The notes under the pieces: model-generated
Seen by the model: the letters and a program-made list of their open reading frames with translations, nothing else
Database searches by the model: none
Told to the model about the DNA's origin: nothing
From: Phycisphaerae bacterium
GTDB lineage: Bacteria > Planctomycetota > Phycisphaerae > UBA1845
Length of the DNA: 64,000 nucleotides
Direction of reading: 5' to 3'
NCBI GenBank assembly: GCA_963666835.2
Contig: CAXXGO010000001.1
Location: 1,856,001-1,920,000 of the forward strand
Translations under genes and position numbers: made by a program
Shown: positions 1,920-51,640 of the stretch, one piece after another
Numbering within the stretch: position 1 is the first letter of the stretch
How the letters are laid out: each line of letters starts with the position of its first letter

Positions 1920-4412
1920 TCAGCCGACCATGCGCACAACGTCGTTATACGTTACGAAAATGAACGCCCCGATAATCAGGACCAAGCCGATCAGTTGGGT
2001 GGCGACCTGGACGCGGAGGCTCACCGGGCTTCCTTTAATCTTCTCGATGATCAGGAAGATCATCAACCCGCCGTCCACGATGGGCAGGGGAAGGAAGTTG
2101 ATCACGGCCAGGTTGGCCGAGATGATCGCCAGGAAGAACAGGAACTCGACGGTGCCGGCCCGGGCGATCTTGCCGCCGATCGACACGATCCCGAGCGGGC
2201 CGGAGAGGTTCTCCACTCCGACACTGCGCGAGAAGATCATCCGGTCCATGATCGTATAGACCTGCAGGATGAAGGCATAGGTCTTGTGCAAGCCGATTCG
2301 CAAGGCGTCGAAGGCGTTCTCGCCTTTGAGCAGCGTGGTCTCATGGTTAACTCCGACGTTCGCGGAAAATGCGATTCTCCCGAGCCAGGGGTCCACCATA
2401 TCTGCGGTGATGGCAACCTCTGCCGTTTCGACCGGTGAGAGCGGCGTGCGTCGGAACTCCACACGTACGGTCCGACCAATCAGCTCCGTCAGAAGGCTGC
2501 GCAGACCCTCGTGGTAGCCGACCTGGACTTCCTCTAGTCCGCGGTTAGTGTCGACCTCAACACTGGTCTGGTCATCGACCGAAACGATTCGAGCCGCGGA
2601 GCCGACCCCAAGCATGGTTCGCAACGAATGCGGAACGCCGAAGGGGACCGTCTGGGACTCGTTGGCCTTGTCCACGTATACTAGATCCACACTTCGACCC
2701 GCTGAGGCACGAAACACGTCAATCAACTCACGCCAGGTTGTTACCGGCTGATCATCCACCGAAGTGATTCGAACGCCTGGAGGAATACCGGCCTTTGCGG
2801 CCGGGCTGGGTTGCCCTGCAATGCGCGGGACAATGTTGCCGATCTGCAGCCAATCATCCGCGACGTTGGCAAAGCTGACGTCGATGGCCCCGGGAGCCTC
2901 CGGTCTCAATACGGTAGCGAGCAATCTGCCGTCATGTTTCTGGACCGTAATGCGCACATGCTTGCCGACACCGTTACGGATTGCTTTGGAGACCTCGCGA
3001 GCGGACGGGTTTTCTTTGTTCTCGATATAGCGTACCAGATCCCCGGTTTCGATGTCGGCCGCCGCGGCTCTGCCACCCGCCTTGACCTCCACAAAACGGG
3101 CCTGCGCCCCGCCTTCCTTGCGCTCATCCTCGGGAATGGCCAGGCATTGGGCCTGCACGGTGCCTCCACCCTGGCGGTGCTGTTTGGGGCGCACGAAGCC
3201 TTCCGCGATCCGGCCGTCGGCCGTGCGAACGGTGTAATGAACGTCATGTTCCGGATTGTCGCGGTAAGCTCGCGTGATGGTTGCCAGGTTCGGGTAGGGG
3301 ATATCATCCCATTCGATAACCGTGTCGCCCTCCCGCAGACCGCCGAGGAAGCCTCGCCCTTCGAGATCGGCGGCGGCGACGCGCACCAAGGGTGCGAGGC
3401 CGAGCACGTTTATGGAATCCTGATCGTCACTGTCGCTGGGAAAGACCGTCAGTTGAGGGGGGATGTTGACGCGAACCCGTTGTGGAGCGGCGTCCGGGTT
3501 GTTGGGGTCCGGGCGTTCCACGTAAATCTCCTTGGCGTACGCCAACATGTTCTGCATGGCGCTGGCGTTGTCGTCGGTGATGGCAACGCCGTCCGCTTCG
3601 ACCAGAAGGTCCCCTACGTGGGGCGAATCCGGTTTGGACGTGTCGATAAAGGGGCCGACGCCTATGATTTCTCGGGTGTAGCCAGTGCTGATGCCGATGG
3701 CCTGGCGGCGAATCTCGCGGGTGCTCTCCGGCCTGCGATAGTCCGGCATGACCATCAGTGGTGGTATCTGACGGCCATTTCGCTCAACGACGAACTCCAC
3801 CGGCTCCCGCGGATGGGCGAGCAGAATGGCCATACTAATATCATTGAATTCAAGGGTCTTCTCCCCGTTGACCTCCATGACGGTGTCTCCGGGGAGCAAG
3901 CCTGCCTTATCGGCCGGACTGTCCGGCTCAACATAGCCGATCCGGGGGCTGGCCGCCTGCATGCCGACCATGAACACGATCATGAACAGGAAACACGCGA
4001 ATATGATGTTCATCACCACGCCGGCCGAGACGATCGCCATACGCCGACCGACCGGTTTGTTGATGAACGACCGCGGATCGTCCTTAAACAACAGTTCTTG
4101 AGTCTTGTCCTCGAAGTCCTCCTGGCCCAGCATTTTTACGTAACCGCCGAACGGGAGGATGTTAAATGAATAACGGGTCTCACCTCGGGTGACTCCGACG
4201 ACCTCCCGGCCGAACCCGATGGCGAACTGCTCGACACGCACGTCGGCCCACTTGGCCACAAGGAAGTGTCCGAGTTCGTGAACGAAGATGATCGCCGAGA
4301 ACCCGAGGATCATCATCGCATAGGGCCAGATCGCGTCCCAGATCGTGGATATCGCAGACTGGGCCATCAGCAGGGTGTCAGGTTGAGAACACTGAGCAAT
4401 TAAACCGTGCAT
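1920..4412 (-). CDS. rseP: RIP zinc metalloprotease RseP (M50) with multiple PDZ domains
   Basis: HELGH, FAIGFG, GGYVKMLG, NFLPLPIVDGG and repeated SPAxxAG(L/I)xxGD PDZ motifs. Lies directly downstream of dxr (conserved synteny). Confidence 0.93.
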   Translation of the reverse strand: MHGLIAQCSQPDTLLMAQSAISTIWDAIWPYAMMILGFSAIIFVHELGHFLVAKWADVRVEQFAIGFGREVVGVTRGETRYSFNILPFGGYVKMLGQEDFEDKTQELLFKDDPRSFINKPVGRRMAIVSAGVVMNIIFACFLFMIVFMVGMQAASPRIGYVEPDSPADKAGLLPGDTVMEVNGEKTLEFNDISMAILLAHPREPVEFVVERNGRQIPPLMVMPDYRRPESTREIRRQAIGISTGYTREIIGVGPFIDTSKPDSPHVGDLLVEADGVAITDDNASAMQNMLAYAKEIYVERPDPNNPDAAPQRVRVNIPPQLTVFPSDSDDQDSINVLGLAPLVRVAAADLEGRGFLGGLREGDTVIEWDDIPYPNLATITRAYRDNPEHDVHYTVRTADGRIAEGFVRPKQHRQGGGTVQAQCLAIPEDERKEGGAQARFVEVKAGGRAAAADIETGDLVRYIENKENPSAREVSKAIRNGVGKHVRITVQKHDGRLLATVLRPEAPGAIDVSFANVADDWLQIGNIVPRIAGQPSPAAKAGIPPGVRITSVDDQPVTTWRELIDVFRASAGRSVDLVYVDKANESQTVPFGVPHSLRTMLGVGSAARIVSVDDQTSVEVDTNRGLEEVQVGYHEGLRSLLTELIGRTVRVEFRRTPLSPVETAEVAITADMVDPWLGRIAFSANVGVNHETTLLKGENAFDALRIGLHKTYAFILQVYTIMDRMIFSRSVGVENLSGPLGIVSIGGKIARAGTVEFLFFLAIISANLAVINFLPLPIVDGGLMIFLIIEKIKGSPVSLRVQVATQLIGLVLIIGAFIFVTYNDVVRMVG

Positions 4413-47151: not shown

Positions 47152-47940
47152 TCACTCGTTCCGCGATTCGCGTACTCGGATCAGTACGTCATCGGGGTCG
47201 ATCCGATCCTGAATGCGGCTGGAGATGTACTTCCAGACGATCCTGCCTTGCCGGTCGATCAGCACGTGTGCGGGAATGGCGATGTCGCTGTCGTCCAGGG
47301 CGCCGCCTTTGTGTAACAGGCCGAACGCCCGGATGACTTCACGCTCGGTATCACAAATAACGGAGAAGTTCAGGTTGTTGCGCTCGACCATGCGGCGGGC
47401 GTCGGACGGGGCATCCGCGGCAATGGCCAACAACCTGCCACCCTGAGATCGCAGTTCCTCAGCTACGGCTCCGAGACCTCGGAGTTCAGCTACGCACCAG
47501 GGTCACCAATGCCCGCGATAGAATACCAGCAAGACCGGACCACGCGCATGCGCTTCTCGGAGCGAAATCGGAGTACCCGTATGATCCGCAACGGTGAAGT
47601 CAGGGGCAGTTTCCACCGTGACAGCAGCGGAAGGGGCCGGAAGGGACGCGCCGATATAGAACGCATATACGAAGGCGGCCAGCAGAGCCAAGTTAAACGC
47701 GCCGAGAATGCGAACCGCGGTTCGACGATCGCGCCACAACGCCGACAGAGTGAGTACTCCGCCGGCCGCCATTATACCTACGGCCACAGCGCCGCTTGAA
47801 CGCATCGCAGGGTTATCGATAAGCAGAGCGTATGCCAGGGGGCCGGCAAACATCAAACCCAGCCCGGCCACCACTGACCCCGTTGCGTGCACCTCGTCCG
47901 GTGGTTTGTCCATCGTGAAGCTCTCCAGTTCGAAGCCCAT
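47152..47940 (-). CDS. Membrane-anchored AhpC/TSA (peroxiredoxin-like) selenoprotein with a UxxC active site
   Basis: ORFs 47503-47940 and 47152-47433 share a frame and are joined through the TGA at 47503-47505: APDFT...GPVLLVFYRGHW-U-PWCVAEL...PAHVLIDRQGRIVW. Three N-terminal TM helices. The start may be 47913. Confidence 0.9.
47461..47491 (-). promoter_or_regulatory. Bacterial SECIS element
   Basis: mRNA downstream of the UGA reads AGCUGAA-CUCCG-AGGUCU-CGGAG-CCGUAGCU, with the apical AGGUCU loop 23 nt after the UGA. Confidence 0.8.
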
Positions 47941-47949
47941 GCGCGACCG

Positions 47950-49027
47950 CTATGCTTCGGGGGCGACCGCGGGGCGTTGCCATTCCGTCGCCGACGCACA
48001 CTTGGCGAGTTGGCAGGCCAAGTGAATCGCTTCTTTCATGCTCCCGGCGTCCGCCGCGTCGGTTCCGGCAATGTCGAAGGCGGTGCCGTGATCGACGCTC
48101 GTACGAATGATGGGCAGACCCAGGGTGACGTTTACCGCAGTGTCAAACGCGAGCATTTTGACCGGGATCAAGGCCTGGTCCATGGTACATTGCCACGATG
48201 CCATCGAACCGAGAGCGCATCCGCGGTGTGAACAGAGTGTCCGCGGGGAACGGTCCGTCGACGTCTATGCCCGCGTTGCGGGCCATCTGCATGGCGGGTC
48301 GAATCACCCGTTCTTCTTCGTCACCGAATTGCTGATCCTCACCCGCGTGAGGGTTCAACGCCGCTACCGCTATGCGGGGATCGGTTATTCCAAACCACTT
48401 CGTTAAGGCAGTGTGGAGCAGGTCGATAGGCTGAAACACGAGCCCGATAGTGAACTTGTTGCGGAGTTCGAAAAGCCCCAAGTGAGTGCTGGCAAGGGCG
48501 ACTCGCAGCCCGCCTCCGACGAAGGCCATCGTTACCCGCTTAGCCTTGAAGGCGTCGGCAAGCTTGTCAGTATGTCCGGCAAACCGGCAGCCGGCGAGCT
48601 TCCAACTGACCTTCTGGATTGGGGCGGTAACTATGGCGTCGATCGCGCCGTCTCGGGCGGCTTCGATGGCGTCATCGAAGAACCGCAGGCTGGCGTGTCC
48701 TCCTTCTGCGGTAGGCCGGGCGACCACCCAGCTCCCCGCCTTGTATTCGTCGTAATTACGAACGACGACGCCGGAGTCGATCCGCATCGGTTCATCCGGG
48801 CGGATCGTGAACCAGAACGGCCGAATCGCTGCGGTGTCCGCCGCCGCCGTTAGCACGTCGTCGACACCGTAAATGACGAATCTGCCCAGCGCGCGGATGT
48901 CGGGATCGGCCAGGGCCTTGACAATCACCTCGGCCCCAATGCCGGCCGGGTCGCCCATTGTGATTCCGACGAGCGGCAGCCTGGCGTCGGGGAGTCTCTG
49001 GTTGTGCGTCATGAAGTCGGCCGTCAT
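47950..49027 (-). pseudogene. pdxA: 4-hydroxythreonine-4-phosphate dehydrogenase PdxA, frameshifted (possibly a sequencing error)
   Basis: GDPAGIGAE, GHT, LNPHAGE, GPFPADT, AMYH, then an extra G at about 48180-48181; continues in another frame as [31 protein letters not shown]. Confidence 0.9.
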
Positions 49028-49932: not shown

Positions 49933-50172
49933 TCAAAGGTCCAGCAGAGCATTGATCAGCTCTTCGTCCTCGATACCGAGATCGCGGAACTCCTGACGTT
50001 TCCCATCCTCGCTAAGGTCGGCATCCTCGGCTATGTTGGTCAGATCCTCCACAGAGAAGAGCTGGCCGTCCGTGCCGACAAGGCGGTTGGAGAACTCGAC
50101 ATCGATGAGGCTTCCACATCCGGCGAGGGCGGCCGTCGCCACCGCGGCCGACCATATTGCAGCGTGTTTCAT
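49933..50172 (-). CDS. Small acidic lipoprotein (79 aa)
   Basis: MKHAAIWSAAVATAALAGC lipobox. It is hidden at the tail of the 554-aa ORF produced by the upstream frameshift. Confidence 0.75.
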   Translation of the reverse strand: MKHAAIWSAAVATAALAGCGSLIDVEFSNRLVGTDGQLFSVEDLTNIAEDADLSEDGKRQEFRDLGIEDEELINALLDL

Positions 50173-50267
50173 AGTCAAGTCCCTCAGACGACGTTGGGTC
50201 GTACAGGTTCCACACTTCACGTATTCTACGCGAGCCGAAGCGGCACGCAATCGGGGGGATCGGCCGG

Positions 50268-51510
50268 CTACCGGGGTACGCGTACGGAACTGCGGGCGAG
50301 TTGGGCCGCCGGAAGGACCTGACTGGTCGGCATCGAGGCCACCCGCGCCGATGATCGGATTCGCGTTTCGATCATCTCGGAGAGGCGTTCGACCTTGGGT
50401 AGCCACGATTCCTTTTCCACGACCTTGCTTATTTCCTGCCGGCGTCCCGGGTAATCGGTGGCCAGCGCCTGGTCGCACGCCTCGGCGAAACGCTGGGCGG
50501 TGTCCGCGATAGTAATCGGTCCCAGGAAGGGCTCCGCCTCCGGCAGCGGGGTGGATACGATCGGCAATCCGGCGGCCAAGTACTCGTGCATCTTGATCGG
50601 GTTGACCGTTCGTGTCAGCGGGCTGTCCACGAAGGGGAGCAGTCCGGCGTCGAAGCCCGCGCAGTACTGGGGGGAGTACGTCGATCGAACGCCGGCCCAG
50701 CAGAAAGACGTTGGGCAGACGTTCCAGGGTGGACACGTCACGTTTGCAGTCGCCGATTAAAACGAACGAGTATTCCGGGCGAAGGCGGGCGACCCGGGCG
50801 ATCAGCGCGCAGTCGATCCAAAAGTGAATCAGCCCGAAGAACCCGAAGATTGGGCGAGGCACCGACGCCAGATCCGCGGGACACGTCAGCGGCTTCCGCC
50901 AAGCGGCGGCGAAGTGGTCGAAGTCCACGCCGTGCCGCACAAGGCTGACGTCGGGGCGGCGGACGCTTTTGGCTTTCCGTAATGCCTCGGAGGTTGTGAC
51001 CACGATATCTGCGCGGTCGATAAGCTCGTTCTCGGCGCGCAGGATGGCCTGCTCGTCGACCCCTTCAAACTGGCTGTGTTCGTCGACGCAGTAATAGAGG
51101 AAACACTCCTCGTTGAATTTCCCAGCGAGGTAGGGTACATCCGGAGCGAAAGACCACACCTGACGGGGTTTGTTTCGGGCGTTGGGAACGGAACGGATTG
51201 CTCGTCTGATCTGGGCGATGAGCATTCGCTGGTGGACGCGGCTCAGAATCGGGCCGGTTGCTCCCGGGATTACCAAGGGCGTTATCTGGGTCATCGTCGG
51301 GGTGACGCGGGTGATACCCCCCAGAAAGCGGCGTAACACCGAGCAACTGGCCTGAAAGTCGGCCCTACTGAACGTGGGGCGGCGAGTTCCATGATAGTTA
51401 ACCCAGACGACATCATTATGTCGTGCGAGGATCTTCATGATCTGGTGCTTGCTCGTCGGGTCGTAGTCCCACGAACTGGCCAGACAGATGATGATACGTC
51501 CCTCGATCAC
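50268..51510 (-). pseudogene. GT4-type glycosyltransferase, +1 frameshift in a G6 tract (possibly a sequencing error)
   Basis: N-part WDYDPTSKHQ..YYCVDEH..HGVD..GFFG..LLGRR; C-part in another frame YCAGFDAGLLPF..NPIKMHEYLAAGLPIVST. The junction is at G6, 50669-50674. Confidence 0.85.
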
Positions 51511-51640
51511 AGCAACCCCTCTACGCTGACGATGGTTGTAACGCCTACGCGAGCCCCGCGAGTCTCTGCGGCCGCAGAGGCTTGTCGGTTGGAGCACATT
51601 GGACTTGTGCTCACTCGTTCACTCGGTTGGGATCCGTACG

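Follow-up and report, generated by a model that had tools for sequence, protein, structure and literature searches.

A predicted selenocysteine-containing PRX_like2 protein with a three-helix membrane anchor in a Phycisphaerae bacterium

The minus strand of a 64,000 nt stretch of a Phycisphaerae genome (contig CAXXGO010000001.1, positions 1,856,001 to 1,920,000; hereafter the window) carries a Prx-like gene (47940/47913-47152) that is almost certainly one gene whose in-frame UGA is read as selenocysteine (Sec). The product is predicted to be a thioredoxin-type PRX_like2 protein with a U-x-x-C motif, held behind three transmembrane (TM) helices. A first-pass annotation made from the DNA letters had proposed a hidden selenoprotein at this place, and that reading is upheld by the Sec machinery of the genome, by the alignment of the TGA with the Cys of homologs, by a SECIS that appears to be under purifying selection, and by databases that split the gene at this codon. 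The enzyme class is known as a prediction; only the anchored form, which is common to dozens of related bacteria, appears to be undescribed.

Reading frame, Sec machinery and conservation of the TGA

From ATG 47940, 145 codons are open before a TGA at 47505-47503 (codon 146, context FYRGHW-TGA-PWC), which is the predicted U146 of U-P-W-C, and 116 sense codons follow 3′ of it, ending at TGA 47154-47152. Cys149 (47494-47496, minus strand), the predicted resolving cysteine of the UxxC motif, is invariant in 41/41 Sec and 26/26 Cys rows of the alignment. The true start is probably ATG 47913 rather than 47940, because an SD-like GGAGAG lies at 47926-47921, 7 nt upstream of ATG 47913, and a 93%-identical database protein (P0040, 136 aa) begins at the equivalent Met and stops at the TGA. 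The gene would then occupy 47152-47913 on the minus strand and encode 253 aa, compared with 262 aa from ATG 47940; the additional nine codons (47914-47940) are an alternative N-terminal extension that is probably untranslated. The frame of the first-pass annotation, which had given 47152-47940 and left the strand unstated, is thus retained, whereas its start probably gives way to the later ATG (residue numbers here count from ATG 47940). The read-through protein matched Pfam AhpC-TSA (PF00578) over residues 111-236 with 93.6 bits (E 1.2e-26; cut-off 26), whereas the two halves taken separately scored 19.6 and 54 bits. The TGA therefore lies at the first Cys of the FYRGxW-C-PxC motif, as had been claimed, and the codons beyond it complete the AhpC-TSA domain.

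The first-pass annotation had implied that this organism should decode Sec, and the genome (92% complete) holds all four genes that it had named for a search. selA was found with E 1e-143, selB adjoins it and scores above its cut-off, and tRNA-Sec (selC) was called by ARAGORN and by Rfam (68.4 bits, cut-off 47). Two selD genes are present (G000:C6:1524365-1525294, plus strand; G000:C1:1328296-1329225, minus strand), one with an in-frame TGA of its own (AG-U-AAK) and the other with CACK behind a cysteine-desulfurase-like domain, a combination that can be read from its sequence as a NifS-SelD fusion. TGA is not reassigned genome-wide, since this gene and other genes of the genome end at TGA.

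Other AhpC-TSA genes were seen in the same genome. One (G000:C1:294536-294934, minus strand) has TFV-TGA-PTE with an 8-bp hairpin after the TGA, and is likely another selenoprotein, a TxxU peroxiredoxin; a second (G000:C1:392333-394708, plus strand) is a 1232-aa open frame with five AhpC-TSA domains in tandem. An identical sequence context recurs six times (G000 C1:155791, 1319635, 1311851 and 64797; C6:1036776; C7:63757) and is probably a multicopy insertion element.

The TGA is widely conserved. Among 60 relatives, 17 full-length orthologs were found at E<1e-40, of which 16 share this TGA position and one has TGC there. Across the phylum, 39 of 400 genomes gave a match at E<=1e-35; 29 of these matches were inspected, and showed TGA at the motif in 27 and Cys in two, with only one hydrophobic segment in two of the 27, and the remaining 10 of the 39 were listed with an internal TGA and were counted by that listing rather than by position. 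A further 89 metagenome loci, retrieved with a pattern that left synonymous positions free, were all homologs by tblastn. The same TGA occurs in over 40 independent genomes and at 89 loci from metagenomes. In the alignment of homologs that had been proposed as a check, the column that is TGA in 41 rows is C in the 26 Cys rows. selA was present in 16/16 TGA-bearing relatives and 35/37 TGA-bearing phylum genomes, the two exceptions being 84% and 67% complete, and in 3 of 20 listed same-class genomes lacking the gene, controls that are a non-random sample. No full-length ortholog occurred in the eight relatives without selA, and selA is common in the order anyway (52/60 relatives).

Public protein sets store the gene as a "hypothetical membrane protein" of ~140 aa and a fragment of ~113 aa, and the prediction that gene callers would split it proved correct: 29/29 N-terminal-half hits end at FxRxxW, and the best 150 profile hits include 39 that stop right before the TGA and 19 that are fragments of the C-terminal part. 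Atlas clusters of the split halves are named "hypothetical protein" and are commonest in Planctomycetota. Because the Sec forms are stored split, the read-through protein used as a query returned one full-length homolog only. A search for related loci with the single protein as query found none, and the same search with an alignment reached only Cys forms, its best named match being a Planctomycetales Cys ortholog, because its pattern required WCxxC. Some other loci were seen alongside. The PRX_like2 gene L036 (G026:C7:77726-78034) is soluble and carries a pair of in-frame TGAs (UxxU, GHW-U-RY-U), and its relatives L034 and L035 are UxxC. In L039 and L040 (G015, G025) a domain with CxxCH, the c-type heme motif, precedes the UxxC Prx-like domain in one fused protein.

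These data bear on the alternative in which the TGA is a genuine stop or was introduced in assembly, leaving a pseudogene, two proteins (a 3-TM protein and a C-terminal fragment) or a codon read through as Cys or Trp. The neighbouring pdxA does carry a frameshift in this assembly, and databases do call two fragments. However, the same TGA recurs in many independent genomes and metagenome loci, the 93%-identical relative stops at that very codon, a split would cut the thioredoxin fold at its active site, TGA serves as a stop elsewhere in the genome and at the end of this gene, and synonymous sites in the downstream hairpin are constrained (see below). A stop or artefact is consequently regarded as extremely improbable, and Sec recoding is the reading followed here.

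The SECIS hairpin

The upper stem-loop of a bacterial SECIS, CUCCGA-GGUC-UCGGAG, was identified at 47469-47484 (minus strand), spanning +19 to +34 after the UGA, with 6 bp, a loop 24 nt after the UGA and a coding content of Leu-Arg-Gly-Leu-Gly. The apical AGGUCU that the first-pass annotation had likened to E. coli fdhF is identical to the hexamer of that gene (NC_000913), but the two elements differ in that the hexamer lies at +24 here and at +18 in fdhF, the 6-bp stem is perfect and has no bulged U, and the lower stem is different. The published bSECIS consensus is a loop of 3-9 nt, a stem of 4-16 bp, G in the first two loop positions, a distance of 16-37 nt from the UGA and an MFE <= -7.5 (PMC13188914, Fig. 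2 legend). A simplified implementation of these rules, used in place of the bSECISearch run that had been suggested, accepted the element (4-nt GGUC loop, 6 bp, 24 nt, -12.5 kcal/mol), and passed 40/44 Sec genes, 3/6 Cys orthologs of the 3-TM family and 12/77 distant Cys genes. The folding energy of the hairpin was not significant alone when compared with shuffles (z -0.3 to -1.45). Among 39,459 genomic TGAs that are preceded by 8 or more open codons and followed by 40 or more, a GGNY loop on a stem of at least 5 bp follows 394, and an AGGUCU loop on a stem of at least 6 bp follows one, which is this TGA.

Codon usage within the hairpin was compared with that of the rest of the same genes. In 17 Sec genes (that of the window included), the hairpin codons are Leu CTC in 17/17, Leu CTC in 16/16 and Gly GGA in 15/16, whereas elsewhere in these genes Leu is encoded by CTC in 26% and Gly by GGA in 12% of cases. 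Codon identity averages 0.38 over the 58 other conserved degenerate columns and stays below 0.8 in every one of them; at the two loop codons, where two alleles occur, it is 0.47. The exact 15-mer of the window was present in 41 of 83 distinct metagenome sequences. Across 42 genome-derived sequences the named stem was 75% paired, and double-sided changes were found in 5/7 stem pairs (for example G-C to A-U in six rows), with a covariation score of 0.240 that none of 500 shuffles reached and that compares with at most 0.202 in the slid controls, figures that are inflated by relatedness. RNAalifold gave no consensus structure for the 42 Sec sequences, probably due to the presence of at least two loop registers (GGUC at +25 and three-base loops at +22). 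Taken from the frozen synonymous sites and the compensatory changes, the SECIS is evidently under purifying selection. An apparent A:U/C:G covariation inside the loop (7 vs 9 of 17) was rejected, the commonest alternative in the metagenomes being C-C (16/83).

Catalytic domain, predicted membrane anchor and proposed mechanism

AlphaFold2 (AF2) modelling of 18 sequences (pLDDT 96) predicted a thioredoxin fold preceded by three long helices at the N-terminus, the first and second of which are separated by a short one. For the AhpC-TSA/thioredoxin-fold catalytic domain (residues 111-236; 47233-47610, minus strand), the nearest solved structures are those of AhpE (5id2, Z 23.3) and BCP/PrxQ (2cx3, Z 21.8), the range for this group being Z 21-23 with an rmsd of 1.6-2.1 A, and ResA/TlpA match more weakly (Z 14-18). 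In the alignment to BCP 2cx3, R-G-H-W-U-P-W-C is set against P-A-A-F-S-P-V-C, so that U146 takes the place of the Thr/Ser in the Prx motif and R142 that of its Pro, while C149 coincides with the peroxidatic Cys; P223 occupies the position of the catalytic Arg, the residue numbered Arg127 in PrxII (PMC3514251). The PxxxT/SxxC(U) motif of a true peroxiredoxin is therefore absent, R142 occurring in 41/41 Sec rows, and the catalytic Arg position holds Pro223 in 38/41 and Ala in three; the motif is UxxC (U146-P-W-C149) and not TxxU. Near-invariant residues in the 41 Sec rows are R142, G143, C149, L153 and R246 (41), W145 and H210 (40), and R47, P101 and P223 (38).

The FYRGxW stretch ahead of the UxxC is a motif shared with cd02970 PRX_like2. 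PMC3514251 characterises CDD cd02970 PRX_like2 by a CxxC in which the second Cys falls at the peroxidatic position of Prx and by the loss of the other triad residues. The protein of the window fits this description and differs in having Sec for the first Cys and a 3-TM anchor. Because the Prx Pro/Thr/Arg triad is missing, its residues identify the protein as a thioredoxin-type PRX_like2 and not a true peroxiredoxin. The label "peroxiredoxin-like" in the first-pass annotation accordingly holds for the fold only. The PRX_like2 pattern points to thioredoxin-type dithiol rather than classical peroxidase chemistry; the authors of PMC3514251, as far as that text goes, guessed against a disulfide-oxidoreductase function for Prx-like proteins, without data.

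The best NCBIfam match was NF040769 (SelL-related redox protein; E 5.7e-19), which shares the fold and the motif region, but the protein scores 68.4 bits where the cut-off is 120 and is not a member, and no NCBIfam model covers the three-TM subfamily. The extracytoplasmic Trx-like proteins ResA, TlpA, CcmG and StoA, which have a single membrane anchor, resemble the protein in their CxxC, a conserved Pro at the cis-Pro position, membrane anchoring and a likely supply of electrons from DsbD/ScsB; it differs from them in its three helices, in Sec for Cys, and in NCBIfam scores far below the cut-offs of the ResA (NF002854, 55.7/170), TlpA (NF047696, 22.6/230) and a third ResA/TlpA-type model (NF041202, 17.8/210). 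True peroxiredoxins (BCP/PrxQ, AhpE, the periplasmic PprX of PMC3322552 and Sec-Prx with TxxU) include the closest solved folds; here, in contrast, the triad Pro, Thr and Arg are lacking and Sec stands at the Thr position, and the genome has its likely TxxU Prx as a separate gene.

The three-TM anchor noted in the first-pass annotation was recovered in the AF2 models as helices at residues 19-39, 51-70 and 74-97 (47650-47886, minus strand), with a short helix at 44-49 that bears the conserved P44 and R47. The three-helix domain had no match in Pfam, NCBIfam or PDB, no Foldseek hit at E<=0.001, and no paralog in the genome, its only matches being unnamed Atlas clusters; this lack of matches does not show a new fold. 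The membrane part is without a conserved cysteine. Two three-TM homologs nested among Sec forms, P0011 (FYPSTRDLTS) and P0050 (FHRGQRDVSS), have lost both redox residues and are possibly non-catalytic, a hint that the scaffold may have a function of its own.

In 18 sequences, mean K/R counts were 2.3 for the N-terminus, 1.2 for loop 1-2, 3.7 for loop 2-3 and 0.9 after TM3. On these charge counts the arrangement is probably N-in/C-out, and the Sec domain would therefore face the periplasm. In the opposite arrangement, a Sec oxidoreductase with a cytoplasm-facing domain would draw its electrons from thioredoxin reductase or from a low-molecular-weight thiol. In favour of it, helix 1 might be a signal anchor or re-entrant, and Sec is prone to oxidation, but a cytoplasmic domain runs against the positive-inside pattern, in which loop 2-3 is inside and the segment after TM3 outside, and is judged quite improbable.

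For the periplasm-facing form, the following mechanism is, as a whole, somewhat more likely than not. SelB with Sec-tRNA(Sec) would bind the GGUC loop and insert Sec146, and the three helices would hold the thioredoxin-type U-x-x-C oxidoreductase in the inner membrane, facing the periplasm. Envelope proteins with disulfides or oxidised thiols would be attacked by the selenolate of Sec146. The mixed bond would then be resolved by Cys149, leaving an internal selenenylsulfide for the ScsB/DsbD-type membrane electron transporter of the genome to reduce again. The candidate donor is an 822-aa DsbD_TM protein of ScsB/DsbD type with a C-terminal CTEC motif (L267:277-2745, G000:C6) that could supply electrons to the Sec protein. 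It apparently has two N-terminal periplasmic domains. ScsB of Caulobacter has been reported to feed periplasmic Trx-fold proteins (PMC3322552).

The same selenoprotein could instead act as a membrane-tethered selenium peroxidase, in which H2O2 or lipid hydroperoxides oxidise the Sec, Cys149 resolves, and the helices present the Sec to membrane peroxides. BCP/PrxQ and AhpE are the best matches in both sequence and structure, R246 (41/41) and H210 (40/41) could stand in for the missing triad, and a selenolate may do without activation by Arg; a periplasmic peroxiredoxin fed by ScsB, PprX, is also on record (PMC3322552). Against a peroxidase stand the replacement of the triad Pro, Thr and Arg, the placing of Sec at the N-terminal position of the Trx motif and not at the peroxidatic one, and the repeated replacement of Sec by Cys in forms that keep CxxC. 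Peroxidase activity is for these reasons considered unlikely, and thiol-disulfide exchange is retained as the preferred function.

Evolution, genomic context and significance

In quick trees with SH-aLRT support, Cys forms fell in several spots among the Sec forms. In a 39-row subset, chosen after the first tree, five Sec/Cys changes are needed, of which starred branches force three, and the grouping of all Cys forms in one clade was rejected (p-AU 1.4e-6). The nested Cys forms mostly retain ELRGL or a similar peptide, which suggests repeated Sec-to-Cys reversion, a direction inferred from trees that were midpoint-rooted only. SECIS remnants after a Sec-to-Cys change have been described (PMC1794560). 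A Cys ortholog from Rokuibacteriota (L051, Cys codon at 4184) retains a perfect 9-bp SECIS-like hairpin with a GGUC loop at +24. It is conceivable, if unlikely on present evidence, that these proteins form an undescribed, ancestrally Sec-containing family of envelope-facing selenoenzymes (mainly Planctomycetota) whose cysteine-poor three-helix domain, more than a passive anchor, brings lipid hydroperoxides or disulfides of membrane proteins to the Sec site as membrane substrates, and that the SECIS has fixed ELRGLG so firmly that repeated Sec-to-Cys revertants keep the peptide and sometimes the hairpin.

The gene follows ribE-pdxA, 10-37 nt from pdxA, as the first-pass annotation had remarked. 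That position is nevertheless incidental, because 74 neighbour ORFs (up to two per side at 19 ortholog loci) include no match to PdxA or Lum_binding at E 1e-8, and no Pfam family recurs among them at the same threshold; no substrate or partner is indicated by these neighbours, and a functional link to ribE-pdxA was rejected. pdxA itself (window 47950-49027, minus strand) is split between two frames near 48180, the parts covering PF04166 positions 6-237 and 232-286, and three of four relatives span the break point in one frame; the break is probably an assembly indel. A glycosyltransferase-like ORF (49933-51597, minus strand) has an apparent frame shift near 50600-50700, with its C-terminal part in ORF 50268-50741 (minus strand), a possible second indel.

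That Prx-like UxxC selenoproteins exist, as stated in the first-pass annotation, agrees with the family "Prx-like thiol:disulfide oxidoreductase" (PF00578, UxxC/UxxU; "Prx-like 1" of the GOS study), which Table 1 of PMC13188914 rates as "predicted with high confidence" among selenoproteins and which PMC2398784 also lists. The gene of the window shares with them PF00578, UxxC, a UGA with a downstream bSECIS and Cys homologs, and differs in its three-helix N-terminal membrane domain and likely extracytoplasmic location. An architecture with a three-helix anchor is not described in the text of either paper that was consulted, where Table 1 gives domain IDs and motifs only and could count members silently; nor did the literature listings searched show any account of the 3-TM form or of selenoproteins from Planctomycetota, although the GOS sequence datasets could contain members.

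The three-helix-anchored selenoprotein reveals no new recoding mechanism or chemistry. It does correct a systematic mis-annotation, in that about 10% of the sampled phylum genomes (39/400) carry a gene that is stored split, and with selA in 52 of 60 relatives it belongs to a lineage that uses Sec widely. The natural series of Sec and Cys orthologs could be used to test what Sec adds in an envelope oxidoreductase.
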